A stretch of DNA of 64,000 bases from Escherichia coli (GCF_003334305.1 NZ_QOWS01000003.1), one strand, 5' to 3'. Shown: positions 2,214 through 20,662, counted from the first letter of the stretch. Program-made: numbers and translations. The notes: generated by a model from the sequence alone, not told the origin.

Positions 2214-2298
2214 GCCGAAGTGGCGAAATCGGTAGACGCAGTTGATTCAAAATCAACCGTAGAAATACGTGCCGGTTCGAGTCCGGCCTTCGGCACCA
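2214..2298 (+). tRNA. leuX: tRNA-Leu (anticodon CAA)
   Basis: 85-nt sequence GCCGAAGTGGCGAAATCGGTAGACGCAGTTGATTCAAAATCAACCGTAGAAATACGTGCCGGTTCGAGTCCGGCCTTCGGCACCA: 7-bp acceptor stem, long variable arm, CAA in the anticodon loop, encoded CCA end. Confidence 0.95.
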
Positions 2299-2314
2299 CA
2301 TCGTATGCAAATCG

Positions 2315-2339
2315 AGTCGCTCAAGGGCGGCTTTTTTTG
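2315..2339 (+). terminator. Rho-independent terminator after leuX
   Basis: Stem agtcgc / gcggct with a 6-nt loop followed by a run of seven T (2333-2339). Confidence 0.55.
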
Positions 2340-2499
2340 TGCCTGAAATCCAGTATCCGCAAGGCTTTCCTCGCTTTTTCACTCAACCTAAGTCAACCTG
2401 ATTCAATCTACATCAACTTACTGATGCGGGTACAACTGCGGGTATTTCCCGGTTCGATTATGTTTGTACCCACACAGGGCCCTTGAAAGGATACTCATC

Positions 2500-3965: not shown

Positions 3966-5435
3966 TCAAATAACTCCAAGCTTTGCATACAATTCTTTTT
4001 TCTCTTTCATGCTGTTATCCAATGGTGCTACTCGCAATGCCGCTTTCAAATAAGCCGCAGCACCAGAGTAATCACGCATTTGCTCGCAAACTAAAATGAG
4101 TTGGCTTAACACATGGAACTTCATTGGAGTTGTTTGGTTTACTTTCTCCAATAGTACTCTTGCTTCAGAATATTTCGCTTCAAGGCCAAGGATAGATGAT
4201 TCTAAATACATGGTGGCCGCGTTTTCTGCTTCAGCTTGCTTTCGTTGCAACAGCCAGAAATTTGCTTGACTGATATTGCGTAACTGTAGGTTTGCCTTAA
4301 CTATCAACTCGAACAAAGCTGCTGGTTGAGTCAATTTACCCTCAAGTAAGATCGCTTTATTATCTTCTACAACTTTTTCAAAGTCGAATAAGCGATTGGC
4401 GCGATACAAGGCAATAAGTTGCTGATGTAAAGCTTGTAGATCTTTACTGCGGCTATACTCCTGCGACGCTAATTGAGCAGCTTTTTGGTAAGATTGATCG
4501 GACATTGCTTCAAGTACCGCACTTGACCAGTCCTGAGCAGGTTTAGTTTGAAAAACGGGAGCAATAGCACCAACTTTTAATTGCTTAGTGGCAGCAGAAT
4601 CAAATGCATGAATTAAGTCGGAAATAGTGGAAAAGCGATCCTCCGCTCGTTTTTGTAAACAAGTAAGAACCACTTGTTCCAGGTCCGTATGAATAGAGCT
4701 ATTAATCTCTGTCGGAAGCTTGAAAGGTGCGTGGCGCTGAACTTGTGCTGGCGTATCATGGGGCAGCTTTCCTGTCAGCAGCTGGTATAGCAAAACACCT
4801 AAGCTATAGATGTCGCCCAATAGTAGCTCTTCCAGGCTGCCTCTACGGCTATCGACGTTGGAGAACTCTGGGGCCGAATACAGCACAGTCCCGCCATTTT
4901 CACGGGTACGAACGTAAATTTCTTCTGGTAAAGCTGAGCTGCCAAAGTCCGTCAACTTCACCAGGTCCCGCTCTCCAACCAAAATGTTATGTGGCTTAAT
5001 ATCTCCATGAGATATTGGTACTGGTAATTCGGCCAAATAATGCACAGCACAGAGCACTTGACGATATATTCTGAACAACCGTTCATAGGTCTGGCCAAAA
5101 TTACGCTGCCTGTCATCGAGCTTTTGCGCCAGGGTTTGGCTGGGAAAATACTCCATTTCAATATAGAACCATTCATTATCTATACGGCCCATATCAAAAA
5201 TTTGCACAATATTTTCGTGCGGCTCGACGTTTAAAAGCTCTTTACCTTCGGCAAGCTGACGGTCTTCCCGAGTAATATCCTTAGGGATTTTTACTGCGAC
5301 AATTTTTCCATCTTTCAGGCGTTCCGCCCGCCATACCCAGCCATGGCTGCCATCACCAAGGCATTCAAGTAACAGGTATTTGTCACCAAGGCGTTTATTC
5401 GTCCCTGGCAAAAAATGTGCTGATTTTATATTCAC
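3966..5435 (-). CDS. Hanks-type Ser/Thr protein kinase with a C-terminal helical (TPR-like) domain
   Basis: 489-aa ORF with Gly-rich loop LGDGSHGW, catalytic lysine in VAVKIP, catalytic loop HGDIKPHN, DFG, SAPE and DIYSLGVLLYQLLTG; C-terminal half is helical and repeat-like. Last gene of the operon; its start overlaps the upstream gene stop by 4 nt. Confidence 0.88.
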   Translation of the reverse strand: MNIKSAHFLPGTNKRLGDKYLLLECLGDGSHGWVWRAERLKDGKIVAVKIPKDITREDRQLAEGKELLNVEPHENIVQIFDMGRIDNEWFYIEMEYFPSQTLAQKLDDRQRNFGQTYERLFRIYRQVLCAVHYLAELPVPISHGDIKPHNILVGERDLVKLTDFGSSALPEEIYVRTRENGGTVLYSAPEFSNVDSRRGSLEELLLGDIYSLGVLLYQLLTGKLPHDTPAQVQRHAPFKLPTEINSSIHTDLEQVVLTCLQKRAEDRFSTISDLIHAFDSAATKQLKVGAIAPVFQTKPAQDWSSAVLEAMSDQSYQKAAQLASQEYSRSKDLQALHQQLIALYRANRLFDFEKVVEDNKAILLEGKLTQPAALFELIVKANLQLRNISQANFWLLQRKQAEAENAATMYLESSILGLEAKYSEARVLLEKVNQTTPMKFHVLSQLILVCEQMRDYSGAAAYLKAALRVAPLDNSMKEKKELYAKLGVI

Positions 5436-5974
5436 ATCAACACCTCATAGTGAATTCTGTCCAAAACAATCATGTTCAGGTTTTTGATAAATAAAAAGCG
5501 ACTAAATACCACCTCAACATCAGGAGCGGCGATTACTTGGGTACCCGTGGACGAAGTAAAACCCATACGGCATATGTCTTTCAGTTTTTGAGTATCAGGT
5601 ACACCTACTAAGCCTTGGCTCCAGGCACTGAGGACCAGGGTTTTGGGGCAATGATTCCAGCGCTGTGCTGCTTCCAGTAAGTTTTTTAATTTTTCTTCCA
5701 GCTTTTGCTGCCCCTTCGCTGAACCATCAAAGCGTTCAAATTCGATTAAACACACAGGCGATGCAGAAGATTTATGAAACCAGCCCGAGTCAGAGCGAAT
5801 ATCAGCACCAAATGTCCCTGGAGCCGGGCATTCCACTACCGCCATAAATGACTGTTCATGCCCGAATGTATTCCAAACGCTACAGCCCAGGCTGTGGACC
5901 AATACATCCTGGTCCAATAGCTTACCGCTTGCTAAAAGTGGAAATGTCTCATTTACCCAGGCAACTTCAGGCAT
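5432..5974 (-). CDS. Hypothetical protein (about 180 aa), operon partner of the kinase
   Basis: ORF track 5432-6031; the first ATG is at 5974 (complement of 5972-5974), 7 nt after the HerA-like stop and preceded by AAGGTG. No recognisable motif. Confidence 0.7.
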   Translation of the reverse strand: MPEVAWVNETFPLLASGKLLDQDVLVHSLGCSVWNTFGHEQSFMAVVECPAPGTFGADIRSDSGWFHKSSASPVCLIEFERFDGSAKGQQKLEEKLKNLLEAAQRWNHCPKTLVLSAWSQGLVGVPDTQKLKDICRMGFTSSTGTQVIAAPDVEVVFSRFLFIKNLNMIVLDRIHYEVLM

Positions 5975-5981
5975 AGGCACC

Positions 5982-7667
5982 TTAGCCACTGAAAGAGCCC
6001 CAAACACGCAGTACCTCTGGTGATTCACCACCGTGAATTAATGCCTTACTACCAACTTTAACAAGCAGTGGTGCAGGGATTGAACGACCACACACCAAAG
6101 CTTCACCGGTTGATAAACTCGGGAGTTCCTCCAGATCAGCTTTGCTCACCATATCTGATGCTTTAGCTATAAATCGTTGATCGTCAGGGTTCTTTAAGCG
6201 CATCGTAATTAGCGTATTGCACTGAGAGGTCACATCTGAATCTAATTTCGATGGACGCTGGCTCACAATGCCAAATCCAACGCCAAATTTACGACCTTCA
6301 CCAGCGATCTTTTTAATAATGCGGTGACTGACTGCGTTGCCGCCGGCCGGGGCAAAATTATGACCCTCTTCGTAAATGATAAAGCATGGGCGCAGCGGGT
6401 CCGTTTTGCTCGAGGCTGCTTTTAATATTTCACTAGATAACAGTGCACAAATGACTTGCTTAGCGGTATCACTCAAACCTTGTAAGTCAACAACGACTAA
6501 ACGCCCCTGTTGATTGCTCGGGCGACCCACCATTTTGTAAATATCAGTTGGCTCAGCCATTGTTGCGCTGTAAAAACTTTTAGCTTCATTAAGCACACGT
6601 GAAAGCTTCATCGAGGCGACGGCGGCACTACGGCCTGATAACGCCTTCGCCTCAGCTTCAGAAAGGTCGTCCCACTCTTTTAACTCTTCAATACCATCAC
6701 CTAATAAGAAGCGTAGGCGGTTAATATCTCGTGGCTCAGTCTTATCTGCAGAGCGCCAATAACGAATTGCAACATCGAGTACTCGTTGCTGCGGTTCCGT
6801 TAAGCCAGGTAATATTTCAGCAATATCGTCCATTTCAAAATGGTCAAACTGAAGCGCTAATGGCGTATTCTTACTGGCGTATTTATGTTTAAAAGATTCA
6901 TGCTGCGGCGAGTAAACCTGAATACCTGCACCGGCGGCTTGCAGCTTTTCAAAGGTCTGTTTTATCAGTGGCAGTGCTTCTTGATCACGCTTATCGTCAG
7001 TGGCTTCTAAGAAGCTTGAGAATTGCAGATTACCGCCAGCGAGGGCTTTACCGTATTCACCATGTGGGTCAAATACTACTACCGTACCGTTATTAACCGC
7101 AACTAAACGCTCAATAATGCGGCCAACTGTATAAGACTTACCTGAACCCGTCATTGCCAGAACAGCCAAATGCTCAGTGACCAACTTGTTCACGTCAATA
7201 AAAACAGGAACTGTATTCTCACCTTTGTCGTAGCCTACTAAGTTACCTAAGTGCAAACTGGAGTGTTCATTAAATTCGTAAAAATCACTCAAAAACTGAA
7301 AATCGACGGTTTCAACAGCGGTACCCGGGTTAAGCGGGCGACGTGGAATTTTGATTTGACGAGTAACAGGATCGCGGTAACCAACCAGCTCGACCTGAGC
7401 AAACATATTCTCACCAGTTACATTCGCACCGGGCAAAAGCTCAAGCTCGGTTACACCATCGCCAAAGCCGGCGTTATAGAGCATATTAGTACGGCTTATC
7501 TTGGTCACTCGCCCCAGTACGGCGACTTGCCCCTCATCTTTGCGTTCCTGGTGCATAATGCGTACAAACTCACCACGGCGTACTGAAAACGAGTCTTGTA
7601 CAACCATAGTTAACTGACTGGCATCACCAGTGTTACCGACTAATTTACCTAAAACTTTATAAGCCAT
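5982..7667 (-). CDS. HerA/FtsK-superfamily P-loop ATPase (DUF87-like)
   Basis: 561 aa; Walker A LAMTGSGKSYT, then VVVFDPHGEY, Walker B-like FIIYEEGHNF and a C-terminal GVGFGIVSQRPSKLD segment typical of HerA-type ATPases. Confidence 0.82.
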   Translation of the reverse strand: MAYKVLGKLVGNTGDASQLTMVVQDSFSVRRGEFVRIMHQERKDEGQVAVLGRVTKISRTNMLYNAGFGDGVTELELLPGANVTGENMFAQVELVGYRDPVTRQIKIPRRPLNPGTAVETVDFQFLSDFYEFNEHSSLHLGNLVGYDKGENTVPVFIDVNKLVTEHLAVLAMTGSGKSYTVGRIIERLVAVNNGTVVVFDPHGEYGKALAGGNLQFSSFLEATDDKRDQEALPLIKQTFEKLQAAGAGIQVYSPQHESFKHKYASKNTPLALQFDHFEMDDIAEILPGLTEPQQRVLDVAIRYWRSADKTEPRDINRLRFLLGDGIEELKEWDDLSEAEAKALSGRSAAVASMKLSRVLNEAKSFYSATMAEPTDIYKMVGRPSNQQGRLVVVDLQGLSDTAKQVICALLSSEILKAASSKTDPLRPCFIIYEEGHNFAPAGGNAVSHRIIKKIAGEGRKFGVGFGIVSQRPSKLDSDVTSQCNTLITMRLKNPDDQRFIAKASDMVSKADLEELPSLSTGEALVCGRSIPAPLLVKVGSKALIHGGESPEVLRVWGSFSG

Positions 7668-8814
7668 TATTCAATCCCTCATCGAGGCCTGCCAACCACC
7701 CTGCCTCAATATCATTATTCTTTAGTGCCTGGTGTAAACCCTGGCGATAAAACGTAGCAAATTTAGGTAAAATACCAAGCTGTTGATAACCAAGTAATTG
7801 TGGCAACGGCATTGCATTACCTTTGTTTTGCATATCCAGCACCATCAGGCGAGAGGCAACTAAATCGAGATCAGCACTTTTCCATTCTGGTTCGTCACCC
7901 GCTAATTGCACCATTTTTATCTGTCCACCTCGGGCACTACGGAAGTGAAAACCAATTAGACCTTGCTTAGCTTCAATATTGGGTTCAATGCGCTTTTCTT
8001 GTTCAGACAAACGAAATGCGATGGTGCGCGAATAGTTGCCTAAAATGCCATTGATAAATCGCAAATCTCCCACGCCAACCAAACTTTCATCCAGTCCTTC
8101 CAGATTTTGCATCAACTCTTTAGAAAACCCATCAGATGCTAAAATTTGTTTGCGTCCTTGTTCGGTACGTAAATCTTGTTTGGCGATACTTACAATGGCA
8201 CTAAAGCGCTCAGCCAAAATGCTCGCAAGTACTACACCATTTTGATTCCAGGGAAAAATTCTGGAGCGATGGTTTTGCCAAAAAGTTTCTATCACTTGTC
8301 TGGTTTTTTCGTACTCTTGTTTATGACGGACATTTCTCTCCAGCGGAGCCATATCCCGTGCTAAAAACAACGGCGTATCCAGCAAAATTAAATCGCCAGG
8401 CTCATAACCTAAAAGTTTTTTCTCAACTAACTGATAAGCCTGACGAATTTCAATTAAATCAAGCCGTTTACGCTGAGCTTCAAAATCAATATCATCCAGT
8501 TCTGATACCGAGTCGCTACCCACCGTGCTGACTTTATTGTCATCTATTAACAAATCTGTGCGCACTGCTGCACTGGCATAAATAAAACCACCCAATACCT
8601 TGTCTAAGCACGATTTAGTCGCAATACCGGCTACGCGTAAATTAACAATTGTGGGCTTGGGGACCGCTTTCACTAAGCCAGCATCACGGAATAGCGGCGC
8701 CACTTGCTCAATATCACGGACCTGTTTAAGCAAGCGTCCTGCACTTCCCGGTAAGCGAAGCTGGCTATCGATGGCGAGCGATTGCGCTAAATTCATCGTT
8801 TTGTTCTCATTCAT
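7657..8814 (-). CDS. Hypothetical protein (about 386 aa)
   Basis: ATG at 8814 (MNENKTMNLAQ...) lies 2 nt after the stop of the upstream gene; its 3' end overlaps the HerA-like start by 11 nt. No confident motif. Confidence 0.75.
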   Translation of the reverse strand: MNENKTMNLAQSLAIDSQLRLPGSAGRLLKQVRDIEQVAPLFRDAGLVKAVPKPTIVNLRVAGIATKSCLDKVLGGFIYASAAVRTDLLIDDNKVSTVGSDSVSELDDIDFEAQRKRLDLIEIRQAYQLVEKKLLGYEPGDLILLDTPLFLARDMAPLERNVRHKQEYEKTRQVIETFWQNHRSRIFPWNQNGVVLASILAERFSAIVSIAKQDLRTEQGRKQILASDGFSKELMQNLEGLDESLVGVGDLRFINGILGNYSRTIAFRLSEQEKRIEPNIEAKQGLIGFHFRSARGGQIKMVQLAGDEPEWKSADLDLVASRLMVLDMQNKGNAMPLPQLLGYQQLGILPKFATFYRQGLHQALKNNDIEAGWLAGLDEGLNNGL

Positions 8815-8816
8815 GC

Positions 8817-9665
8817 TTATAGCGTTCCTGTGTGTAGCTGCTCGCCAAGTAATGGGGCATAAGCCCAATATTGCGAGGCTTGTAGGCATGTTTTACCGGT
8901 AGCTGTTATGCCCGCGTCGTCGATAAAATCGTGCTGCCGCAACATCTCACCCCGCTTGACAATATCAAGGCTATTAACATCAAACATCAGCTTAACCGCA
9001 TTATGCTCAGACAACGCTTGTAAGTTCATGCCACCGCCAGCGTAGAGTAATAGCAATACAACTAGATCGTGCTTATCTGGCGTGTAGTCAGTTGATGGCG
9101 CTTTAGGTTCGATTATTCGTTCAGCAATGCCTGCATGGTCCACAAACCAATTCAACCAGCTCACCAGGAGCTCACTATGATCGAGTAAAGTCAGCGACCA
9201 CAAAGGTAACGTGGTAAAGGCTAATAGCCCACTGTTGCTGTGTTTTCGTATGTAGCGGGTATGCACTACATCACCGGCCTGGTGCTGGTAGCGATCTGCG
9301 CTGCCAGTAAAGCCAGCAATAGCCTGGTCTGTTTCACTGGCTAGCAAAGCGGTTAGCCCCGGTTCCTGCCCCCTCAAGCTCGCTGGTACTAACTGCCAAT
9401 CCAGTGGATAGGGCAATTGCGCTAATAAGGTAAATTGTTCTGCTTTCAGGTTTATTACCAAAGCGGCACAACCTGCCTGCATAGCCCAGTGATACAGGTG
9501 CTGCATAGTATTAGCGTCAGTCAACTCTTCTGCTTGCACTATTAACAAACCGCTGGCTGGCGGCGAGCTAATCCAATCCTTCATTAAGGGGGTAGCCCCC
9601 GCAACAGTTTGCAAAAAACGGCCTTTACGATTACTGGCCAGTGCCGCAGATAAATAACGACTCAT
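8817..9665 (-). CDS. Hypothetical protein (about 282 aa)
   Basis: ATG at 9665 (MSRYLSAAL...), 10 nt after the stop of the 1428-aa gene; the longer frame to 9692 needs a non-ATG start. No recognisable motif. Confidence 0.72.
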   Translation of the reverse strand: MSRYLSAALASNRKGRFLQTVAGATPLMKDWISSPPASGLLIVQAEELTDANTMQHLYHWAMQAGCAALVINLKAEQFTLLAQLPYPLDWQLVPASLRGQEPGLTALLASETDQAIAGFTGSADRYQHQAGDVVHTRYIRKHSNSGLLAFTTLPLWSLTLLDHSELLVSWLNWFVDHAGIAERIIEPKAPSTDYTPDKHDLVVLLLLYAGGGMNLQALSEHNAVKLMFDVNSLDIVKRGEMLRQHDFIDDAGITATGKTCLQASQYWAYAPLLGEQLHTGTL

Positions 9666-9675
9666 CGCGTCACCT

Positions 9676-12600
9676 CTACAAACCAGTGGCAAAGGTAAGG
9701 CGCATTTTTACAATGCCTTTGTCTACAAGTCCTTTCTGTTGCTCAGGTGTTAACACGGGTTCCTGATTTTGGCTCAAAGCCTTATAAATCGGTTGCCAAT
9801 CCGCCAGTGTTAAGCCTGTATCATTTAATATTTGCTCACCTTGACTCTGCCATTTGGCCTGGGTGCTTTCACACACCTGTTGAAGTTCTCTGACACCCAA
9901 ATTGCTCACATCCTCCAGAGTCAACGCTGCTGGTTCCGCTTGCTTTTGAGAAGCCAATAGCGGTTTTAATAACGGCAGCCAGCTGTTTACCTGTGCGATG
10001 GAGTTGCGTCTTACTTGGTTTAGACGCTCTTCAATTTTAAGTAGCTGGCCTTGAATCGGTGTAAGTTGACCGCGTGCCGGTTTTAAAAGCTCTTCTGGTA
10101 AATCCCGTAACGATGAAAACTGCCCATTGCGCAAACTGTTTTGCATACTTTGACGCTTGCTCTCTGCATCACTGGGGAGATCGGCAATAGCATCTTCAAT
10201 GAGCTGTAATTTCATTACCAGTTTTGGTAGCTCTGCAATGTCATCGGCGAACTGATACTCAGCCGTGGCGCTACTAAGCCATTCTTGCAGTTGTTGTGCA
10301 CGTAGTTTTTGCTCTGTGAGGTTATTAACCAGCTTACTAAATCGTTCTTTGCAGTTGCGGTAGCTGGACAAAATATGCCCCTGAATCTCCGCTATCGGCA
10401 ACTGTTGATCATTGTGCAGGTTTAAACCCACTTCTTGCGCTAAGGCTGAAAGCTTGTCATGCGCTCTACCTAAATCGAGTTTACGCAGGTAATGCAGTAA
10501 GGTATCGCTATCTGCTTGCTGCTCTTTTCGGCCAGTGGCACTGCTGGTATCGTCTTTTAACGCTCCATCTAAAATATGACCTATGGTGCGCAGCGTGTTG
10601 GTGTACAGACGTTTCGGAAAATTCGTCAGCGGGGCACACTCTGTTTCAACATCTATGATTAAATCAACGAGTCGGTTGTTGATACGCTCAGCGCTGCACT
10701 CAACAAACTCGGCAAATAAACAGGCCTGTTCAATCCGTTGATAAAGCGAGGTCGTTTTGTCTTCTAAGCTGAGAATATGGGCATCTTTTAGCATAGGCCT
10801 GGAACTATTAAGCGGTTTAACCTTTGCTACCAGCTCCAGCACTTCAGCGCGTTTGTGGATAAGCCCTGCCAATACTTTCGTGTCGTTGGCCTCGACCATA
10901 TCAGCCAATTGTTCTTCTTGCTGTTTGAGCACGTTAAATAGCGATTGTGCTTTTTCCAGCTGCTCTTTAGCTTCCACGGTGACGAAACCCAGCTTATTTT
11001 TACCCAGTGGCGCGAACATTTCATTAATGCGTGCATAACCATACACGCGGCTCATGACTTCCACATTGGCTGCATAGCTGCCCATATCGTTACCACGGAA
11101 CCAGTTTTGCGCTTCTCTAATGGCATTTTCTAAGCGGGAGCGCGGGTAGTGCTCCCAAATTGCCTGTTTTTCTGTTGGATTGGTTAAAGTGAGTAAGTTC
11201 AGCTCTCCACACCACCACATCCAGTCATTAAACACGCCTTTGGCGGTAACACTCGTTTCAGCCACATAGGCGAAATAAAACTGTTGCTTAAAGCCTTCGA
11301 ATTGCCACTTGTGCTTTTTATTAGGGTGAGCAATACGGGCTAAAAATAATGGGATCTGCGCCTGGCTTCGCTGCACATTATTAAGTTCAGTAAATAGCCC
11401 GGCATGTTCATCGGCAGTGTAACCTTTGGCAATATAGCTGCCCGGCACCTTAAGTTTATCCAACAAGCTGCTCAGCTCATTCACTGGCACGCCGTGTTGC
11501 TGCTGTAAATCGAGAATGCCATTTAACTCAGGGTGAGCAATGGCCAGCTGATACCAGCCTTTAAACAACAGGTCTCGGTCATTCGGTGATAATTTACCAT
11601 CTACCTTTAACGGCCAGGCAATTAAACCGCGCTGCTGCAAACGCTGGCGCCACTTGTGAATGGCATCCGTGGCAAAGGTTGTCAGGGCATGCAGCTTGTT
11701 TTTGAATTTCGCGGTAAAGCTGTCGGCAGTTAAATTCACGCCGTGCAACTGACATGCTGCCAAACTTAAGCCAATACGCTCTAACTGGTCTGCTTCGCTT
11801 GGGTTGACATAATGCAGCAGTATCGCATCACGCAACTCATTTCTTTCATCCAGTCGGCTGTATTGCTCCATGAGATGTGCAGAAGCAGTTAACGCTAATA
11901 CTGGCGTGCGACCATTTTGGTGGCTGTGGTTTGCCGCAAAGGTGTGAAGATTGTTCAGCTCAATTAGGTTGCTGACCCAGGCAAACAAGGCTTTACCTTC
12001 TGGGTGAAGCTTAAATCCATCCAGGGTAAGTAAACCACCCTGGCGGCCACGGGGCTCGGTTAAAATGGCCAAAGGTGCATCGTCGCTGCCCGCTTTATTA
12101 CTCAGCAAGTTTTCATCATAGGTCCAGTTGTTATCAAGTAATCTCACAAAGCCCGTTACACGGGCTAATGCCTTGATGAGCGGCTTCTGGCTACTTTGTT
12201 TGCTAAGTTCACTCATTGCCTGTTCATGAGCGTCGCCCATGGCGGGATCTTTAAAAATCAGTGAGTTTTGCTGGGCACTGCGATAGCGCAAATCCAGGCG
12301 CAGTAACATCGCCACACTGGGGCCAATATGCGTTGCTTCGCTGGCGTCCAGTTCGGTAGTTTCACCCACTAGCTTGTGCCATAAGGCATCGGCAGCGAAT
12401 TCAATCGCTGGGTGGTCATACAGCAAGCTGAGTAAGTATTTAAACTCACCTTTTGACAGAGGTAGTAATACCGCGCCTTTATCGCCGCTTGCGGCTTGTT
12501 CTTTAATTGAAAAAGTACGCAGGTTATCCAGCAAAGTATCTAAGTTCAGCGCTTGATCTACTGCAGGGTAGTACCATTCATCTTTATCGCGGCGGAATTT

Positions 12601-13962
12601 GGCTTGCTCCAGGGCTTGTCGGCACTGTAGGCGGTCAATGCTCAGTTTGCGGTAATGAGCGGCTATGGGTTCCAGATCTTCGTTTTTCAGCGCCAGCAAT
12701 TCTGTGGCATAGCCCATTTCAGCTAAGCGCACGGGTAATTGGCCGTAGAGCAAACTACGACATTCGGTCAATAGTGCCTGGTCGCGAGTTTGAATGCCTT
12801 CTATCGCGCCTTTATCCAGCACATGCCTGGCTACGCGGCCAGAGCCTGCCAGCACAGCTTCAAATAAATCGCCCACATCCTTGATACTGCGGCCTGCTTG
12901 TTGGTATTGGCTCAGCACTGCATCCACATTAGCCATGACCACGTTAAACCAACCGAAGTTGGCACCACTCATGGCGTATGCAGCTTCCACTAAACCAGCA
13001 GGGTAATTAAAACCCAGCTTGCCGTCTTTTAAGAGGCTTGCCACATAGTCTGATACATCGGCAAAGGCATTATGCTCAAGTTCCACTAACTCAAAGCGGC
13101 GTGCGACCGATTGAATTTCGCGCAATTGCTGGCCAAGCAGTGGTGAACACAGCGCTACATAGCGCAACCATGGAAGTTTACGGCGAGGGTCTTCCTCTTT
13201 AATTGCTTTACCAATCAGGCGAATGGCCTGGCCATCGAGGCGTTTATTTTGTTCATCTTCCAGGCCAAAGGTGGCGGCTTCTGCAACGGTTTCCAGCTCA
13301 TCCAGCACCACCAACATATACTGCACGCCAAAGCTCTTTAATACTTTATAGGCGGCTTGCACCAAACTGACTACCAGCGTTTGGTCAGTATAGAGGTCTT
13401 CTTCGCTGTGGTTGGCGTTCAGCTGTAAGGCATCTGCTAACAGTTCAGATTTAAAGCCAAATGGCATTAAGCGTTCATAGGCTTGTTTGGCAATTTCACT
13501 TTGAATCGATCCATCAAAGGTTTGGGTGGCCAGTGGTAATAGCGCCTGATATAAACCAAAAGCAAACCAGTTATCCGAGTTTTGATAATCTGATGCCACT
13601 TGCGAGTAGCGAATGTAGAGCGCCAGGTATTTGTCTTGCGTGTCGCGATTAAACAGCTGCTTATCGTGCAGTTGGCCTTGTTCGTCGCGGACAAACCAGC
13701 CCCTTGAACAGTCGTTAATTTGTGCAACCAATTCATGGCCTAAACGTGATTTACCCCGACCCCATTCGGCTTCGACGGCAAACACATGGGCAAAGCGATC
13801 ATCGTCGTGATCCACCGTATGCAAAAAGGTTTGAAAGCGTTTAAAAAAGCGGCTCTGGCCCACTAACGGGTCGCGAGGTGGATAATCTGATACGCCCGTC
13901 GCCGCCCAGCGATGTTGTTTTGCCAGGCTATCAACCATCTGTTCGTTTAATTCAAAACTCAT
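9676..13962 (-). CDS. Giant protein (1428 aa) with an N-terminal KAP-type P-loop NTPase domain and about 1200 aa of helical extension
   Basis: Walker A AEWGRGKSRL (the GxWGxGKS pattern of KAP NTPases) near residue 65 and Walker B MLVVLDELE about 150 residues later; the remainder is long and uninterrupted. ATGA overlap with the upstream gene. Confidence 0.85.
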   Translation of the reverse strand: MSFELNEQMVDSLAKQHRWAATGVSDYPPRDPLVGQSRFFKRFQTFLHTVDHDDDRFAHVFAVEAEWGRGKSRLGHELVAQINDCSRGWFVRDEQGQLHDKQLFNRDTQDKYLALYIRYSQVASDYQNSDNWFAFGLYQALLPLATQTFDGSIQSEIAKQAYERLMPFGFKSELLADALQLNANHSEEDLYTDQTLVVSLVQAAYKVLKSFGVQYMLVVLDELETVAEAATFGLEDEQNKRLDGQAIRLIGKAIKEEDPRRKLPWLRYVALCSPLLGQQLREIQSVARRFELVELEHNAFADVSDYVASLLKDGKLGFNYPAGLVEAAYAMSGANFGWFNVVMANVDAVLSQYQQAGRSIKDVGDLFEAVLAGSGRVARHVLDKGAIEGIQTRDQALLTECRSLLYGQLPVRLAEMGYATELLALKNEDLEPIAAHYRKLSIDRLQCRQALEQAKFRRDKDEWYYPAVDQALNLDTLLDNLRTFSIKEQAASGDKGAVLLPLSKGEFKYLLSLLYDHPAIEFAADALWHKLVGETTELDASEATHIGPSVAMLLRLDLRYRSAQQNSLIFKDPAMGDAHEQAMSELSKQSSQKPLIKALARVTGFVRLLDNNWTYDENLLSNKAGSDDAPLAILTEPRGRQGGLLTLDGFKLHPEGKALFAWVSNLIELNNLHTFAANHSHQNGRTPVLALTASAHLMEQYSRLDERNELRDAILLHYVNPSEADQLERIGLSLAACQLHGVNLTADSFTAKFKNKLHALTTFATDAIHKWRQRLQQRGLIAWPLKVDGKLSPNDRDLLFKGWYQLAIAHPELNGILDLQQQHGVPVNELSSLLDKLKVPGSYIAKGYTADEHAGLFTELNNVQRSQAQIPLFLARIAHPNKKHKWQFEGFKQQFYFAYVAETSVTAKGVFNDWMWWCGELNLLTLTNPTEKQAIWEHYPRSRLENAIREAQNWFRGNDMGSYAANVEVMSRVYGYARINEMFAPLGKNKLGFVTVEAKEQLEKAQSLFNVLKQQEEQLADMVEANDTKVLAGLIHKRAEVLELVAKVKPLNSSRPMLKDAHILSLEDKTTSLYQRIEQACLFAEFVECSAERINNRLVDLIIDVETECAPLTNFPKRLYTNTLRTIGHILDGALKDDTSSATGRKEQQADSDTLLHYLRKLDLGRAHDKLSALAQEVGLNLHNDQQLPIAEIQGHILSSYRNCKERFSKLVNNLTEQKLRAQQLQEWLSSATAEYQFADDIAELPKLVMKLQLIEDAIADLPSDAESKRQSMQNSLRNGQFSSLRDLPEELLKPARGQLTPIQGQLLKIEERLNQVRRNSIAQVNSWLPLLKPLLASQKQAEPAALTLEDVSNLGVRELQQVCESTQAKWQSQGEQILNDTGLTLADWQPIYKALSQNQEPVLTPEQQKGLVDKGIVKMRLTFATGL

Positions 13963-15260
13963 AACGACGATCCTTGAAGGTTTATTCTATTGGCGGCGCG
14001 TTTTTTATTGGCATAGCAGTTTTGCGCCAGTTGCTTAATGGTCCGTTGTAACGTTTGGCTTTTGTAGCCAAATAGTGGTGCTAACGGCAGGCTATAACAG
14101 GCATCGCTGAAGCTTGTATGAATTCGATATTGGCCGGCCTCTCCACGACCCGCCTCGGTAAATTGCCAGATTTTTTTTGCCAACAATTCGGCAATGAATG
14201 AGCTCAGGACGCGGTTTAGGCGGTTGATGCTTTCCGTGTTCGCATCGAGTGCCGGGTAGAGGGGTATATTGAGCTCACCGAGCAGAAGCACAAGAAACTC
14301 GGCCAAACTACCCAGACTCACCTCATCACCTTCAATGCCCTGTACCGCCACATTTATTTGACCGGGGGCAAAGGCATTTTGCCCGGCAGGTAAGGTGAGC
14401 AACAAACCGCCACGTTGCTCGGCAGCCCAGGCATCTTGCACAAAGATAATTAGACTGAGTAAAAATAACCAGGGCTGTTGGGCGAATAGCTCGGTAAGCG
14501 GCATGTTGTCATGACCCGAGCGGGACACCAATAACCAATCGGCATTGGGTTTAAGGTTATGTTCATCAAGCAAGGTATTAGGGAGTGCTAACAACCGCCC
14601 ACTACACCAGTTATTTGTCAGTTGTTTTGCGGTGACATCCACCGCTTGTATAGGTGCCGGTGGTTCATTTTGTTCGCTCACGGTAAACAAGGTATAGCTG
14701 GTGCGCAAAATACGACATAGCGCGGGAATGGCAGCATTGTCGTTTAGGCTATGACCGAGCAAATCGCGTTCGGTTTGTGCCAGAGGGCCGGCAATGATTT
14801 GCGGCGTGGTGGCAGTGCTTTCCAGCTGGGCTAAGACCCATTCACTGGCATTGCCCAGTTGCTGAATGAGTTTAACCAATACCATTGTGTCACTCATCGT
14901 GCCTGCTTCCTGGCAGCGAGCGGCGGCTAAATTGATCCAATGTTGGCGAACATCTGGGTTTAAGCCCAACAACGCTAATTGCCATTCACCTGACTGGCTT
15001 AAATCGTTAAAGGCATCAAGCAATGGTGCAGTGAGGCTAAAGGCGCTAACGATATCCGTTTCAGCGTCGTTCTTTTTCGGCTGTATTATTGGTTGTAGCA
15101 GTGACCTAAGGGCAGGCACAGCCGCCAATAACAATGCTGCTTTGTTGGCGTTCAAACCACCTTGTTGCCAAAGCTGCAGGCAGAGGTTAAGTGCCGCTTC
15201 GCTATTTACGGGGTCGTTATATTGCCTGGTTGTACTGCTGTCCGTGCCCCTTGTCTCCAT
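13959..15260 (-). CDS. Hypothetical protein (433 aa)
   Basis: Complete ORF starting METRGTDSS; 2-nt gap to the upstream HsdS-like gene and 4-nt overlap with the downstream gene. No recognisable motif. Confidence 0.78.
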   Translation of the reverse strand: METRGTDSSTTRQYNDPVNSEAALNLCLQLWQQGGLNANKAALLLAAVPALRSLLQPIIQPKKNDAETDIVSAFSLTAPLLDAFNDLSQSGEWQLALLGLNPDVRQHWINLAAARCQEAGTMSDTMVLVKLIQQLGNASEWVLAQLESTATTPQIIAGPLAQTERDLLGHSLNDNAAIPALCRILRTSYTLFTVSEQNEPPAPIQAVDVTAKQLTNNWCSGRLLALPNTLLDEHNLKPNADWLLVSRSGHDNMPLTELFAQQPWLFLLSLIIFVQDAWAAEQRGGLLLTLPAGQNAFAPGQINVAVQGIEGDEVSLGSLAEFLVLLLGELNIPLYPALDANTESINRLNRVLSSFIAELLAKKIWQFTEAGRGEAGQYRIHTSFSDACYSLPLAPLFGYKSQTLQRTIKQLAQNCYANKKRAANRINLQGSSL

Positions 15261-15262
15261 CT

Positions 15263-16741
15263 TTACTCTTCAGCCTCCGCTTGCGCCGCCTCTTCCAGCA
15301 AACTGTATAACTCATCCACATCGCTAAATAGCGGTGTGGCACCTTCAATGGCATAACCCTCAGCGCTCAGTTTGCTTAAAATCGCTTGATCAAAGCTGCT
15401 GTCGCCATCTTCCAGGGCTTGTTGGGCCTGGATTAGTTGTTGCTCAGTCAGTTGGCCTTCGATTAATGACTCAACTAGAGTTTTGGCAGATGCTGTTAAC
15501 TTTTTTGCATATGCTGCCGTAGTAACGGCTAGTCTCAGCTTACTTCCTATTTCTCTATTCTTCGCTATGTCAATCGGAATCAGAATATTTAACAGGTTTT
15601 CTGAAGTCACTTTTGGTACAACGCTGCCAGTAGTCACACCTTTCCAACACGGAAAGTGTTTATCCAGGAACCTACAAATAGACTCAATATCATATTCATC
15701 TTTTACCTTTAAAACCCAAACATGGTTGTTTGCCCAAAACTTTCCATCAGCTACATTTGCACAGCCAATAGAGCCATCTTGCGCAATAATCAGATATTTA
15801 CCGTTGAAATTGAATTCGGTATGAGTATCTATTGGACCTGATGCGCCATAGTAAAAATATGGTCCGGGTACTCTGTCTTCCGATTTAATAGGGTCGCCAC
15901 ATTTGCATTTACTAATGAAATTAGATAGTTTTGATGAATTCCTAAAGGTCATTTGACTATCGGCCGCACGTGCAAACTCAGGAGCTAAAGACACTGCTGA
16001 TAATACCTGTTGTTTCATTCTTCTAGGTTTCAATGTTAATGAATCAACAAGGTTGAAGTGAAATAAATCTTTAATTTTTCTATCAGCCATTCCTTCAAGT
16101 CGTTTCGCCCAAGCGCGTAACTGCTCGGCTTGGCGAACTTTATCCCCGATGTATTTTTGGGCTAGAGGTAAAACTTTAGGAACCGCTAGCGAGCGGACAC
16201 TTGGGAAGTCAATTGCAGGGCGAGTTGCGCCATATGCTTCCTTCCAGATCGCTACTTGTCCGGTTTTGCTATTCAAATATGCCACCAAGAAATAGGCGTC
16301 AACTTTTTTGGGATCGGGCTTGAATCTGACTGAGTGCTGACTAATGTTGGCCGGTAGATGTTTAGCTGACACAACAGCCGATTTACCAAATTTTGCACCA
16401 GTAATCGTAAGTAAAACGTCGCCATCCACTAATCGGCTGCGCTTTAATTTTTCATCATCTTCATCGTTAATAAAAACAGCTTCTTCAGCTTGCAAGAACA
16501 TTTCTTCAACTTCAGAAGTGCGATAAAACTTAACACGGCCTTTTTCTAAATAATTTGCTCCTAAAGGTGTTGCGCCACTAGCCACCCCGCGCTTTGAATC
16601 AATTACCGCTTCTAGGGGCAAAGCACCTAGGTTGTCTTTTATCTTATTAATTTGTCTTTCAAATCGCGGTTGATAGTGCCAAGGATCAATCCGCCTTTCA
16701 GACAATTGTTCGGGTGTTCTTTTAAAAATAGTTGCCATCAC
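15263..16741 (-). CDS. Type I restriction-modification specificity subunit-like protein (HsdS-like, two target-recognition domains)
   Basis: Two repeated TRD-end segments (GATRPAIDFPSVRSLAVPKVLPLAQ and GVTTGSVVPKVTSENLLNILIPIDIAKNREIG) plus a helical C-terminus, resembling HsdS. Start is GTG at 16741 or ATG at 16738, overlapping the methyltransferase stop. Confidence 0.75.
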   Translation of the reverse strand: MMATIFKRTPEQLSERRIDPWHYQPRFERQINKIKDNLGALPLEAVIDSKRGVASGATPLGANYLEKGRVKFYRTSEVEEMFLQAEEAVFINDEDDEKLKRSRLVDGDVLLTITGAKFGKSAVVSAKHLPANISQHSVRFKPDPKKVDAYFLVAYLNSKTGQVAIWKEAYGATRPAIDFPSVRSLAVPKVLPLAQKYIGDKVRQAEQLRAWAKRLEGMADRKIKDLFHFNLVDSLTLKPRRMKQQVLSAVSLAPEFARAADSQMTFRNSSKLSNFISKCKCGDPIKSEDRVPGPYFYYGASGPIDTHTEFNFNGKYLIIAQDGSIGCANVADGKFWANNHVWVLKVKDEYDIESICRFLDKHFPCWKGVTTGSVVPKVTSENLLNILIPIDIAKNREIGSKLRLAVTTAAYAKKLTASAKTLVESLIEGQLTEQQLIQAQQALEDGDSSFDQAILSKLSAEGYAIEGATPLFSDVDELYSLLEEAAQAEAEE

Positions 16742-18885
16742 TCACCCCGCTTATAAGCCGATACAATCTTATCCAGATCGTTTGCGACACCGGCGTTATA
16801 GTCTTCGATATTGTTTTTCACCACATAACCCAATGTTTCAGCCACTGCCATAAACACGTCGGTTTGTGGCTCGGGCAAAAATTGCTCTGGCTGGTTGGGG
16901 TTAGCATGGCGTTTTTGTAAATACAAAATCGAGGTTTTGGCCCCCGTACCGGAGAGTTTAAAGCAGTCGCTCGGCAATGAAATTACTGCTTTTACAATAG
17001 CTTTACCGCCAACAAACTCGCCGGTTTTTTCGTCTTTTTTCCCCATAATGTACTCACGGACATAACGGTCGCCGGAGTTACATAAAATACCATCAGGCAG
17101 CACTATTAACAGGCGGCCACCGGGTTTAAGCAGTTGCAGGCAGCGGTCGATAAAAAGTACTGCTGGGTCAATAGTGGCACCTACCGGTTGCCAGTTGCCC
17201 TTGCTATCGGGCTTGCTGCCCAGCGCGAGCCCTGCGGTTGTAGGCTGCAGGCTGTAAAACGGCTTTTTATCAGTCCCGCCCGTTCTGCGCAAATCGGTAC
17301 GGTAGCCCGCCCATTTAGGCTCGCCGTTTTCATCCAGCTCTAAATCACCGATATCCTGCCACTTCATTTTCACGTGGTCATACCAGGCGTTGTAGCTATC
17401 AACGACTTTTTTGGTCGGACGAAAACCACCGAGCACTTGCTCCATATTGGCTTCGTAATTGGCTTTTGAGTTTTGACCATTTTTGCCTTTATCAAATTTA
17501 GGCGTACCGAACGGCGGGTTGGTGCAAATCAGGTCAAAGCTATTCGGCTTCAGAGCGTTAGTAGTGAGTGAGTTGTCGGTATAAAAAATCTGCGCTTTGG
17601 GGGCACCTTGCAATGCCATATTCACGCGGGCCAGCATTACCATGCGTGGTGCAGCATCGGCACCGGTAAATGCACAGTCGCGTAATTTTTGTTTCAATGA
17701 TTCTTTTTTATCGTCGGCCAGCACCAGCTTAAAATCGATCCATTTATCAATCTGGCTTAACGCCACCGAGCCAAAACCAAAGGAGCCACAGGTGGGGTCG
17801 CAGAAACGAAAATCGCCATTGGCTAAGCGCGATCGCATTTCATCGTCATCGTCGATGTCGTGCATAGCAATTTCTAGCATGGCCTGTTTTACTGGGTTTG
17901 GTGTTAAATAAACGCCAAGGCCACCTTTGGATTCAAAGTTAGCGCGTAGGAATACATCAAACACTCTGCCTAGTAAATCTCCTGACACATCAGCCAACGT
18001 GCCGTGTTCTTTCGCGATTTTACCGTCGTTGGTTTTTACCGGACCCAGGTTTTGTATTGCTTCCAGCAAATCCTGATAGTTTTTCGCAACAGACAGTCGC
18101 AGGTGTGTTTCTTTACTAAAGATGGGGTTACGTGAGCCATCATCTGAGATCACAACGTAGTTTTCGTGGCTTTTAAATTCCTCAAAGGCGGCTTTGATTT
18201 GGGCAACGGCTTTATCGCCGTGGCTCTCCACATATTGCCAATCAAAGACATCACGAAAACGCAGGGTATTTCCCTCATCATCTTTAAAGGTAAGGTCTTC
18301 ATCGTGATGCAGGCGGAAAGTTTCTAAAAACAGAAGCTTAGCTACTTCTTCAATAATGTCGTTCTTGTCGTTTACCTTGTCTTTGGTAACGCGATAAACA
18401 TTTTCATGGAAGGCATCAAATCGCTGCATTAAGCGTGTATAAACACGCATCGACCAGCGAAAGGTTGGATCACGCTCCATGCGATCAAAGCTACGTAATT
18501 CTTCCAGACCAGGCAGGGTATCTGCACCGTGGGTACCGTCAGATCCATCGGCACCGAACAAGGCCAAAATACGTTGGTTCAAGCCATCGTCCACAACGGC
18601 ATATACTGGCCAGTCACCTTCGATATCACTTAACAGCTGATAGGCTAAATCATCAAACTTTGCAGTGTCAGCGGCGTATTCCCAATGGCCTTCTGTCAGC
18701 GCAATCAACATGACTGGTGGCGTTAAGTTGCCTTCAACCAGGCCTTGAATGAGACCAGCCTTGGCGAATTCATGCTCGGGTAATTCGACCAATGGCTGAG
18801 TAAACTCGGAGTGCTGTTTGACCAGTTTATTGAACAGTGCTTCTAGCTGCTGTTGCGGGTCTTGTTTTTTTGCTTCTTTTGCCAT
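16738..18885 (-). CDS. N6-adenine DNA methyltransferase (HsdM-like) with an extra N-terminal region of about 350 aa
   Basis: 715 aa; AdoMet motif I-like DPTCGSFGFG and catalytic motif IV NPPFG; the domain order resembles the type I M subunit. Confidence 0.85.
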   Translation of the reverse strand: MAKEAKKQDPQQQLEALFNKLVKQHSEFTQPLVELPEHEFAKAGLIQGLVEGNLTPPVMLIALTEGHWEYAADTAKFDDLAYQLLSDIEGDWPVYAVVDDGLNQRILALFGADGSDGTHGADTLPGLEELRSFDRMERDPTFRWSMRVYTRLMQRFDAFHENVYRVTKDKVNDKNDIIEEVAKLLFLETFRLHHDEDLTFKDDEGNTLRFRDVFDWQYVESHGDKAVAQIKAAFEEFKSHENYVVISDDGSRNPIFSKETHLRLSVAKNYQDLLEAIQNLGPVKTNDGKIAKEHGTLADVSGDLLGRVFDVFLRANFESKGGLGVYLTPNPVKQAMLEIAMHDIDDDDEMRSRLANGDFRFCDPTCGSFGFGSVALSQIDKWIDFKLVLADDKKESLKQKLRDCAFTGADAAPRMVMLARVNMALQGAPKAQIFYTDNSLTTNALKPNSFDLICTNPPFGTPKFDKGKNGQNSKANYEANMEQVLGGFRPTKKVVDSYNAWYDHVKMKWQDIGDLELDENGEPKWAGYRTDLRRTGGTDKKPFYSLQPTTAGLALGSKPDSKGNWQPVGATIDPAVLFIDRCLQLLKPGGRLLIVLPDGILCNSGDRYVREYIMGKKDEKTGEFVGGKAIVKAVISLPSDCFKLSGTGAKTSILYLQKRHANPNQPEQFLPEPQTDVFMAVAETLGYVVKNNIEDYNAGVANDLDKIVSAYKRGE

Positions 18886-18935: not shown

Positions 18936-19322
18936 CTAATTTATCAGTACCAGCAAGGGGCCTTTAATCTCTATCTGCGCGTGCTTCTGTGCCAGTTTGC
19001 GTATCTGCTGTTCACTGGTCGTAATACCAGCAGGGAGCTTTTTCAGTACTTGTGCAAGGGGCATGCGCCCACCAGCTTGATGCAACAATGATACCAAATG
19101 TGCCGCGATATCAGGTATAACCTGGTACGTTGCCGTTGTGGGCCCTTTTAGATGATTACTTTGAGGCAATGAGGCAAGCCATAGCGAAACTTGAGACTGG
19201 CTAAAGCCAAGTGTTTGCCAGAGGGTTTGGTTCTCATTAAATACAACGGCGGCGCTTCTGGGAGTTGCTGTTTGCTGAGTTATTAGTTGTTCCAGGCTTT
19301 GTCGCTGGTATTCATGGGTCAT
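18936..19322 (-). CDS. Small hypothetical protein (128 aa), possibly helix-turn-helix
   Basis: ATGA overlap with the McrC-like gene stop; a 50-nt gap precedes the methyltransferase gene. The segment TLWQTLGFSQSQVSLWLAS loosely resembles an XRE-type HTH (weak). Confidence 0.65.
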   Translation of the reverse strand: MTHEYQRQSLEQLITQQTATPRSAAVVFNENQTLWQTLGFSQSQVSLWLASLPQSNHLKGPTTATYQVIPDIAAHLVSLLHQAGGRMPLAQVLKKLPAGITTSEQQIRKLAQKHAQIEIKGPLLVLIN

Positions 19323-20662
19323 CTCATGCCTCCACTATAGGATACTGAAGCAGCCATCCGATCCAGTTTGGGGCTCATTGTACAGGACACGTCATTCGGC
19401 CACATCATCCTCTCACCGCGTTTTGCCATTATCCGGTATGGCACAACCCATAATTTTAAAGTCTCCGAGAAAGCAAAATGCTGCGCTATAGGTTGGCTAA
19501 AGTCATCATGCGCAGGGTAAATCAGATACATTTCGCCATTCCCACCAAGATATTTTTGTCCGTAGGCAAACATTTGATAGAAGTCAGCTTGTGCCAGTCC
19601 ATAGAGTGATTTTGTCTGCTGGCTGCTATTCACCAGCTTCCATTTTGTATCCATCACCATTTCGGTTTGAACTGGTTTGTGTGATTGAATCAGCAAGTCG
19701 GGGCGAAGCTTAAAGCAATCTTTAAGTCCATGCTTTACCAAAGAATAAGTTGCTGCTTGAGGTAAAACTTTGAGGTGAGGTGGTAACTCGTCGGGTAGGG
19801 TCTGTGCCACAAAGGATTCAAATACCGCTTCCATAGGGAACAAAAGTGATATCGCTTTGGTGTTTCCCTGCAAAGCACTCGGGCTCATTCCCCTCAGGAT
19901 CAATTGCGCCCATGCCATTGGCTCGTTGTAATGAGCCATACCACGCTCGAGGCGTAAGTTGTTTATATCACGTTCAATATCCCGGCTAAGTGGAATACCG
20001 TCAAACGCAAAACGCAGTTCGTAAAGCCAGCGTTGATTATCTGATGACAGCTGCAGACTAAGAAGCTTATCTAGTGCGGAGTGTAAGAGCCGATTGGCTG
20101 CACAATCAGGCATGTAGTCATCATAATCGACACAAAACTTATGGCGATTCACCGCGTTATGTCGCAGCTGTGCAGAAAGCATCAGCTTGCCCTTCATAAA
20201 AGCCAGATTACCTTGCTTGCTCACATAGTCGGAGCGTAAACCCTGTTTAAGCAATTGGCTGACGCTATGCAAAAACTGGTTAATAAAAATCTCAAGCAAA
20301 GGCATACGCTGAGCCTGAAGAGTGGCTTGCTGGGTTTGAATATGTCGGAACCCAGGCAGATGGCTTAGCATCGTCAGCAATGTTTGACGTGCATTAGCCG
20401 CTGTGAGGTTTTTACCAACCTTGGGCAGTATCTCAAGCTGGAAACCGTGAGGTGTTGAAAGCATCCCTGCGTAGTTTTGAACCTGAAGCAATTTGAAGCC
20501 TGAGCGAGAGGTGAGTTTGAGGAACTGGCTCCCTTGATTACTTGCCAGGCTAAGCGCTTCTAAATAATTAAAGACCTGTGGAGGCACCGGTTTTGCGCCA
20601 ACTGAAGCCGCTTTTCCACTCCCCAAGAGGTCATATTCAAAAACGGAGATAACTTCACCCAT
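19319..20662 (-). CDS. McrC-like PD-(D/E)xK nuclease
   Basis: 447 aa; RPDLLI ... MDTKWK arrangement typical of the McrC catalytic core; overlaps the upstream McrB-like gene by 8 nt, as in mcrBC. Confidence 0.8.
   Translation of the reverse strand: MGEVISVFEYDLLGSGKAASVGAKPVPPQVFNYLEALSLASNQGSQFLKLTSRSGFKLLQVQNYAGMLSTPHGFQLEILPKVGKNLTAANARQTLLTMLSHLPGFRHIQTQQATLQAQRMPLLEIFINQFLHSVSQLLKQGLRSDYVSKQGNLAFMKGKLMLSAQLRHNAVNRHKFCVDYDDYMPDCAANRLLHSALDKLLSLQLSSDNQRWLYELRFAFDGIPLSRDIERDINNLRLERGMAHYNEPMAWAQLILRGMSPSALQGNTKAISLLFPMEAVFESFVAQTLPDELPPHLKVLPQAATYSLVKHGLKDCFKLRPDLLIQSHKPVQTEMVMDTKWKLVNSSQQTKSLYGLAQADFYQMFAYGQKYLGGNGEMYLIYPAHDDFSQPIAQHFAFSETLKLWVVPYRIMAKRGERMMWPNDVSCTMSPKLDRMAASVSYSGGMR

Follow-up and report, generated by a model that had tools for sequence, protein, structure and literature searches.

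A large ATPase with a KAP-type P-loop and a predicted BrxC-like extension in a MADS-like gene cassette of the Escherichia coli leuX island

The DNA analyzed here (the window; 64,000 nucleotides of Escherichia coli, GCF_003334305.1, NZ_QOWS01000003.1) carries the E. coli leuX island, with a tRNA-Leu(CAA) gene at 2214-2298, a frameshifted tyrosine integrase (region 2214-3764) and a train of minus-strand genes. One gene of this train, at 9676-13962 and termed here the target, encodes a 1428-residue protein which a preliminary description, made from the DNA alone, had placed either among KAP-type NTPases such as PifA or with the large BREX ATPases BrxC/PglY. The data presented below indicate an N-terminal P-loop domain of KAP type joined to a long extension that matches BrxC by predicted fold, in a protein that is probably the central ATPase of a putative defence cassette. 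Cassette proteins are labelled by position in the published 'MADS-like' system (Madl2, Madl5 and so on) described below.

The target protein and its P-loop domain

The open reading frame proposed previously is a real gene. It starts with ATG, is preceded at 8 nt by an AAGGA Shine-Dalgarno sequence and is represented in RefSeq as WP_000007267.1, 'hypothetical protein'. The stop codon of the 433-codon gene upstream and the start codon of the target overlap as ATGA, an arrangement indicating translational coupling. The predicted product has a mass of 161 kDa and an isoelectric point of 5.8, and no transmembrane segment was found (maximum 19-residue Kyte-Doolittle mean of 1.24). The features of the target are as follows.

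9676..13962, minus strand: target gene, 1428-residue, 161-kDa soluble ATPase (Madl6-like), from the open reading frame listing and RefSeq
12703..13962, minus strand: P-loop NTPase core and helical lid (residues 1-420), the most conserved part, with residues 241-280 99% identical across 35 homologues
13747..13767, minus strand: Walker A motif EWGRGKS (residues 66-72), KAP-type, with invariant Trp67
13291..13314, minus strand: Walker B motif LVVLDELE (residues 217-224), with D221, E222 and E224 invariant
13096..13101, minus strand: invariant pair R288-R289 just before predicted strand 5, a candidate arginine finger from its BrxC-like spacing
12940..12960, minus strand: NFGWFNV motif in the lid (residues 335-341), invariant, a family signature
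10993..12702, minus strand: mixed alpha/beta and winged-helix-like modules (residues 421-990), from model secondary structure and a Foldseek match to BrxC
9679..10992, minus strand: long helices and coiled coil (residues 991-1428), the least conserved part, with 40-65% column identity

Both nucleotide-binding motifs recognized in the preliminary description are borne out by these data. AEWGRGKS, with the tryptophan typical of KAP proteins, occupies residues 65-72 and MLVVLDELE residues 216-224, and K71 of Walker A is separated from D221 of Walker B by 150 residues, as estimated previously. Both Walker motifs are invariant across about 80 orthologues. Residues W67, G68, G70, K71, D221, E222 and E224 are invariant in the 35 homologues and in a 16-sequence set extending down to 27-30% identity, and the tryptophan of WGxGK[ST] is kept in every orthologue for which the N-terminus was recovered, including those at 27-29% identity. 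Since the motif residues are invariant and the tryptophan is retained across orthologues, the P-loop is intact and not degenerate. The target Walker A sequence VFAVEAEWGRGKS fits the KAP form hhhhEGxWGxGK[ST] with its conserved tryptophan, the PifA counterpart being VVGIEGAWGSGKT. A conserved Arg/Lys is also present near residue 376. The target possesses an N-terminal P-loop domain, probably of ASCE/AAA+ type, with a KAP-type Walker A motif and a DE Walker B motif.

Comparison with KAP and BrxC proteins

When the full-length protein and family N-termini were searched against PADLOC, NCBIfam, PHROGs and Pfam no significant match was obtained, and a profile search of PDB sequences returned only spurious matches to the influenza HA2 coiled coil. 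The sole recurrent Pfam match was to KAP_NTPase (PF07693) and was below threshold, with independent E-values of 0.54 for the full-length E. coli protein and 0.11 for its N-terminus. E-values of 0.1 or lower were obtained with eight of nine close family N-termini (best 2.5e-4) and with three of 16 distant members, none of the latter reaching 1e-3.

A relationship to KAP proteins was also indicated by profile-profile alignment with hhalign, using a KAP profile of 54 sequences built from 53 homologues of F-plasmid PifA. The family N-terminus aligned with this profile over a segment comprising helix, strand 1 and P-loop (probability 90.9%, E 1e-6), and a more diverse query gave a separate segment extending from Walker B to strand 4 (probability 87.8%, E 3e-6). 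The P-loop and Walker B segments were colinear in an extended alignment, and global mode gave a probability of 95.7%. Control alignments gave 0.2% for the reversed query against KAP and, for the family N-terminus, 0.6% against HerA, 1.0% against McrB and 1.1% against the kinase. The KAP assignment made previously thus stands for the P-loop region, albeit below curated thresholds, whilst the stand-alone, PifA-like biology that it implied is not supported, the gene being found only within a cassette of 9-11 genes (see below).

The proposed alternative, a relationship to BrxC/PglY, failed every sequence test. An N-terminal BrxC profile of 100+ homologues of E. coli HS BrxC aligned with the family N-terminus at a probability of only 0.6-1.8%, and models for BrxC, PglY and DUF6079 gave no match with the E. 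coli protein, with four of the N-termini or with seven of the distant members, even when lenient E-values were allowed. Comparison with E. coli HS BrxC by hhalign was likewise negative for the single sequence, the N-terminal profile, the full-length family and the C-terminal family. The KAP and BrxC families are themselves not far apart, since six of 120 listed BrxC proteins carry precomputed PF07693 matches and the KAP and BrxC profiles align with a probability of 18.5%, and the two may not be cleanly separable. A search of 1.84 billion protein representatives recovered only members and fragments of the target family, with no sequences bridging to KAP or BrxC. Many KAP members reportedly have transmembrane helices inserted in the NTPase domain, a feature not shared by all members.

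The roughly 1200 residues beyond the Walker motifs had been described as free of recognizable motifs, and this holds for sequence libraries but not at the level of predicted fold. An AlphaFold2 model of residues 621-1428 was of confident quality (pLDDT 86.3). When this model was compared with AFDB50 using Foldseek, the best match after a fragment of the family itself was A0A960LN56, an 1109-residue 'BREX system P-loop protein BrxC' (E 2.2e-19, TM-score 0.60 normalized by query length, 872 aligned columns, 14% identity), and a second BrxC fragment was matched at E 4.5e-8. Residues 621-1428 as a whole therefore match BrxC by predicted fold, and it is here that the BrxC alternative is sustained. 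No PDB entry was matched below E 0.3, in a library that predates the BrxC structures published in July 2026, and sub-threshold matches included the coiled coils of MukB and Smc. In the model, winged-helix-like elements are followed by a small alpha/beta/alpha unit with long helices, a helix and hairpin, and approximately 430 residues of long helices. The published domain order of BrxC is winged helix-turn-helix, alpha+beta, winged helix-turn-helix and a coiled coil of 250-500 residues, with which the predicted order of the target after its ATPase domain is consistent.

The AlphaFold2 model of residues 1-640, generated from the 35-sequence alignment, was poor exactly at the ATPase core. Foldseek matches of this weak model were to AAA+ ATPases of ORC/Cdc6/DnaA type, corresponding to AAA+ lids and not to ABC heads. 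In BrxC the arginine fingers K326/R330 and the sensor-2 residue R430 lie 57-61 and 161 residues past E269 (PMC13326643), and in the target R288-R289 and R/K376 lie 66-67 and 154 residues past the Walker B glutamate. By this spacing R288/R289 and R/K376 may correspond to the BrxC arginine finger and sensor 2, respectively.

The cassette and its distribution

The target gene is preceded by genes for a small protein, an HsdM-like N6-methylase, HsdS and an unknown protein, and followed by genes for two unknown proteins, HerA, a further unknown protein and a Ser/Thr kinase. These genes and the adjacent McrBC system are listed below in the order of transcription.

19319..22730, minus strand: McrB and McrC genes directly upstream of the cassette, an adjacent system, possibly co-transcribed
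18936..19322, minus strand: first cassette gene, 128 residues (Madl2-like), start overlapping the McrC stop (ATGA)
16738..18885, minus strand: HsdM-like N6-adenine methyltransferase, 715 residues, NPPF motif
15263..16741, minus strand: HsdS-type specificity subunit, from library matches and RefSeq
13959..15260, minus strand: 433-residue protein (Madl5-like), translationally coupled to the target
8817..9665, minus strand: 282-residue protein (Madl7-like), from RefSeq and locus comparison
7657..8814, minus strand: 385-residue protein (Madl8-like), strongly conserved and kept even in the most distant cassette variants
5982..7667, minus strand: HerA/FtsK-type ATPase, 561 residues, DUF87, the most conserved cassette protein (65-99% identity)
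5432..5974, minus strand: 180-residue protein (Madl10-like), invariant EFERxDG motif
3966..5435, minus strand: Ser/Thr protein kinase, 489 residues, helical-repeat C-terminus, matches to MAD6 and PglW models below cut-offs

Genes within the cassette overlap or are separated by gaps of no more than 50 nt and promoter- or terminator-like sites are not enriched, an organization that fits a single operon. The overlap of the McrC stop with the start of the 128-residue gene fuses McrBC to the cassette, so that this modification-dependent nuclease may be co-transcribed with a methylation-based cassette.

PADLOC labelled the neighbours of the target as Type I methyltransferase, Type I specificity subunit, HerA (also mad8, 7e-26) and kinase (mad6, 1e-45), with no match for the target itself or for Madl5, Madl7, Madl8 or Madl10. 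Neither NCBIfam nor PHROGs matched the target or Madl2, 5, 7, 8 and 10, and Pfam gave nothing significant for the target, Madl5 or Madl8. Profile searches of PDB sequences with Madl8 and Madl10 were without match, and hhalign comparison of Madl2, 5, 7, 8 and 10 with BrxA, BrxB, PglZ and BrxL of E. coli HS and with PglX was negative. The 385-residue Madl8-like protein encoded beside HerA contains a near-invariant DSVSELDDIDFEAQRKRLDL segment.

A comparable gene set has been reported in the supplement to the MADS preprint (Maestri et al., bioRxiv 10.1101/2023.03.30.534895; Cell Host Microbe 2024) as an 11-gene 'MADS-like' system in P. aeruginosa islands, with predicted roles only. Its madl genes encode a helix-turn-helix/WYL regulator, methylase Madl3, specificity subunit Madl4, ATPase Madl6, a helicase/translocase with DptH similarity (Madl9) and kinase Madl11, with hypothetical proteins between these labelled genes (10.1101/2023.03.30.534895). 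The order methyltransferase (3), specificity subunit (4), ATPase (6), HerA/helicase (9) and kinase (11) is shared by the window and all related loci of sufficient length, and because gene order matches position for position the target is most probably the Madl6 equivalent. The E. coli cassette differs from the published system in that it is without the small helix-turn-helix gene and is fused to McrBC, and published Madl6 is described only as a 'predicted ATPase' with no link to BrxC or KAP.

DNA of the target gene was present in 230 of 5426 complete E. coli genomes (approximately 4%), always as a single chromosomal copy, and no relatives were found in the plasmid or phage collections searched. 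Homologues of the target are approximately 1350-1440 residues in length, all are named hypothetical and none has a Pfam domain. When 100,044 species, each represented by one genome, were scanned, 85 stretches encoding a relative were obtained, corresponding to 77 distinct loci, from Gamma-, Beta-, Alpha- and Deltaproteobacteria, Cyanobacteria, Planctomycetota, Acidobacteriota, Verrucomicrobiota, Fibrobacter and Clostridia. Of these 77 loci none came from a P. aeruginosa genome. Using tblastn, the order methyltransferase, specificity subunit, Madl5, ATPase, Madl7, Madl8, HerA, Madl10 and kinase was observed in every locus long enough, and the target gene is therefore strictly linked to the cassette and was never found alone. 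The whole family amounts to 165 clusters at 50% identity among the 1.84 billion representatives, a small and bounded family that nevertheless spans at least eight phyla, implying strong horizontal spread and selection.

The same neighbours in the same order were found in P. veronii, Desulfonema limicola, V. cholerae and Paraburkholderia, three of which have a gene for a 60-69-residue HTH_17 protein at the head of the cassette, the fourth (Paraburkholderia) having at this position a 64-residue open reading frame without Pfam match. McrBC is located upstream of the cassette only in loci from Enterobacterales (Erwinia, Ewingella, Rosenbergiella and Pantoea), whilst elsewhere this position is occupied by the HTH_17 gene. 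In the V. cholerae loci (L004/L005, 1613-2473) a gene for a BrxR-type WYL regulator (WHD_BrxR, WYL and BrxR_CTD) is encoded on the opposite strand upstream of the cassette, with a 538-residue CoiA_N-like gene between the two and type VI secretion system Hcp/VgrG genes beyond; this regulator echoes the WYL 'Madl1' of the published MADS-like note.

Variation was most evident around the motor gene. In locus L085 (16223-20031), the most distant at 27% identity, an HsdS-like gene and a PbeA-like SF2 helicase are found at the HerA and kinase positions, and in another distant locus (L083, 11111-12814) HerA and kinase are kept, and a further HsdS-like gene lies upstream of the HerA gene. In Clostridium sp. 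N3C (L069, 16010-18085) the Madl8-like gene and HerA are separated by an inserted DarT-DarG toxin-antitoxin pair, an instance of one defence system nested inside another. These locus variants suggest a constant core of methylase, specificity subunit, Madl5, ATPase, Madl7 and Madl8 with a swappable motor module. Two family members of 1644-1645 residues (P0333 and P0337) have an N-terminal extension of approximately 317 residues with a conserved RNKTxGHG motif of the Rx4-6H type, which in P0333 gave a faint match to Pfam Abi_C (E 0.27). As HEPN fusions occur on the DUF499 relatives of BrxC, this extension may hint at a similar HEPN-type RNase fusion. P0333 (1645 residues) also gave weak matches to BrxD models near Walker B (E 2.4e-4 and 3.6e-5).

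Interpretation, known systems and island context

Taken together, these data favour, with a probability of about 0.7, the interpretation that the target is the large ATPase at the centre of a putative defence cassette of 10-11 genes associated with methylation, a divergent BrxC-like oligomerizing scaffold or DNA-sensing ATPase equivalent to Madl6. BrxC is a DNA-binding protein that dimerizes via its C-terminus and assembles into N-terminal dimers bridged by ATP and into rings promoted by DNA, and it connects methylase and effector sub-complexes with one another (PMC13326643). If it behaves like BrxC, the target would bind and hydrolyze ATP, dimerize via its coiled-coil end and oligomerize on DNA, acting as an ATP-driven scaffold or switch that joins HsdM/S to the HerA translocase and partner proteins. 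The HsdM/S pair would mark self DNA and recognize unmethylated sites, and on foreign DNA the target would engage HerA and an effector, leading to restriction, with the kinase as a possible regulator or as a back-up, second-line effector. A role of the cassette in phage defence is putative. In the family alignment the N-terminal 560 residues are highly conserved and the coiled-coil end is the most variable part, a pattern that fits a scaffold ATPase. The missing effector or nuclease is most plausibly to be sought in the Madl10-like 180-residue and Madl8-like 385-residue proteins; as a conjecture, Madl8 may be a NurA-like nuclease and Madl10 a PD-(D/E)xK nuclease.

Several observations weigh against this interpretation. 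Sequence similarity to BrxC was not detected in any part of the target by PADLOC, NCBIfam or hhalign, and equivalents of PglZ, BrxA and BrxB were not detected among the neighbours using PADLOC models and hhalign. The two BrxC entries are the only ones among the Foldseek matches listed, BrxC of the E. coli type is absent among the 50 listed, and structural matches can be inflated by long helices. No nuclease was identified in the cassette, and equivalence with Madl6 is drawn from gene order and domain labels only.

That the target is instead a genuine BrxC/PglY protein, and the locus an unrecognized BREX subtype, seems unlikely. The fold of residues 621-1428, including the coiled coil, would be explained, and the target shares with BrxC/PglY (DUF6079, PF19557) its size class (1200-1430 residues), an N-terminal P-loop, a Walker A motif separated from Walker B by a long insert, and similar spacings from Walker B to the arginine and sensor arginine. 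The operon partner is in both cases an N6-adenine methylase, and its combination with a large ATPase and a PglW-like kinase (PglW models 1e-19) is as in type 2 BREX/Pgl; the weak BrxD matches of P0333 point in the same direction. However, the P-loop of BrxC is GFFGSGKSH whereas that of the target is the KAP-type EWGxGKS, the methylase is a type I-like HsdM/HsdS pair and not PglX, and HerA is an obligate partner. BrxC, PglY and DUF6079 models were unmatched, the BrxC N-terminal profile gave a probability below 2%, and no model match to the defining PglZ, nor to PglX, BrxA, BrxB or BrxL, was found among nine cassette proteins scanned. A stand-alone KAP NTPase like PifA, sensing a phage product and killing or arresting the cell by itself, would account for the EWGxGKS motif with invariant tryptophan within the form hhhhEGxWGxGK[ST], for a Walker spacing of 150 residues against 144 in PifA (approximately 145-150 for KAP, PF07693), and for the recurrence of KAP_NTPase among Pfam matches and the hhalign probabilities of 88-96% with the PifA clan, the profiles being colinear between the helix that precedes strand 1 and strand 4, Walker B included. 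This explanation is nonetheless decidedly improbable. PifA is a single-gene exclusion factor, whereas the target gene occurs only inside a conserved chromosomal-island cassette in all loci long enough and is translationally coupled to its neighbours, because of which an exclusion ATPase acting alone is unsupported. Pfam scores are sub-threshold, the protein is twice the length of KAP proteins and has no transmembrane inserts, no relatives were found in the plasmid and phage collections, and the 800-residue extension matches BrxC and not KAP proteins.

It is very improbable that the locus is simply MADS, with the target as functional equivalent of Mad3, an OLD/AbiEii-type ATPase-nuclease. The kinase, HerA, methylase and specificity subunit do match mad6, mad8, mad2 and mad5 models, respectively, and Madl6 and Mad3 share ATPase predictions, but the same preprint describes their HHpred matches as dissimilar (10.1101/2023.03.30.534895). 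MADS proper is characterized by the OLD/AbiEii ATPase Mad3, the DUF4276 protein Mad4 and the DptG-like Mad7, with MAD6, 7 and 8 mandatory in the authors' model. All MADS matches in the locus were weaker than the generic model except mad6, which was the top PADLOC match of the kinase. PADLOC gave no mad3, mad4 or mad7 match anywhere in the locus and the kinase scored 117 bits with NCBIfam MADS6 against a cut-off of 460, on which grounds the locus is not MADS proper; moreover, no Toprim or OLD signature was found. An SMC/Rad50-like ABC ATPase, as might be supposed from the long C-terminal coiled coil and the sub-threshold Foldseek matches to MukB and Smc coiled coils, is barely credible given that both Walker motifs fall within residues 66-224 with no C-terminal half-head, that SMC_N, AAA_23 and ABC signatures are unmatched, and that the N-terminal model resembles AAA+ lids and not ABC heads.

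A BrxC-like scaffold acting with a translocase also invites comparison with BREX-related capture (BRC) and HerA/FtsK 'capture' systems (PMC12839542, PMC10853773), which similarly combine a BrxC-like/ORC-Cdc6-type ATPase and a HerA/FtsK translocase with DNA-modification genes in a defence context. BRC differs in having PglZ, a STAND NTPase, DUF4007, GNAT, TGT and an ATPase recognizable as DUF6079, none of which was found in the cassette, whereas the latter has a kinase, HsdM/S and five unknown proteins.

On a tentative reading, for which the odds are somewhat below even, the target family could form a third sequence-divergent branch of BrxC-like scaffold ATPases beside DUF6079 and DUF499, with a KAP-type P-loop, and the MADS-like cassette could be a BREX-related system with HerA and four to five proteins of unknown fold in place of PglZ/BrxB and with a PglW-type kinase retained. 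If true, this would link KAP NTPases, BREX/Pgl and MADS in one mechanistic class, built on a methylation-reading AAA+ scaffold whose motor/effector module is swappable. In BREX-type systems BrxC is emerging as the central switch, and the cassette would offer an independent natural experiment in how such a scaffold is wired to effectors, with BrxC architecture in the absence of sequence similarity. Since approximately 4% of complete E. coli genomes carry the cassette it is genetically tractable and readily testable. PADLOC, NCBIfam, Pfam and PHROGs do not detect it, and current defence inventories therefore miss it. The locus type is already known, having been noted in print only as 'MADS-like', and a literature search by RefSeq protein accessions found no paper; the BrxC-like fold of the large ATPase, its KAP-type P-loop, the breadth across phyla and the invariant cassette appear to be new with respect to the literature covered.

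At the island border, beside an HNH remnant and a truncated nanS, a minus-strand gene at 22900-23829 bears the RefSeq annotation 'phosphorothioated DNA-binding restriction endonuclease' (SBD-HNH type) and is the third defence module of this 22-kb leuX island. Beyond the gene train the truncated nanS is followed by nanM, nanC and fim genes, and no convincing att direct repeats were found at the far end of the island. Elsewhere in the window, and unrelated to the cassette, a match to the Rfam small RNA ES036 (CssrF) was observed on the minus strand at 57277-57319, with a score of 39.9 bits against a gathering score of 37.6.

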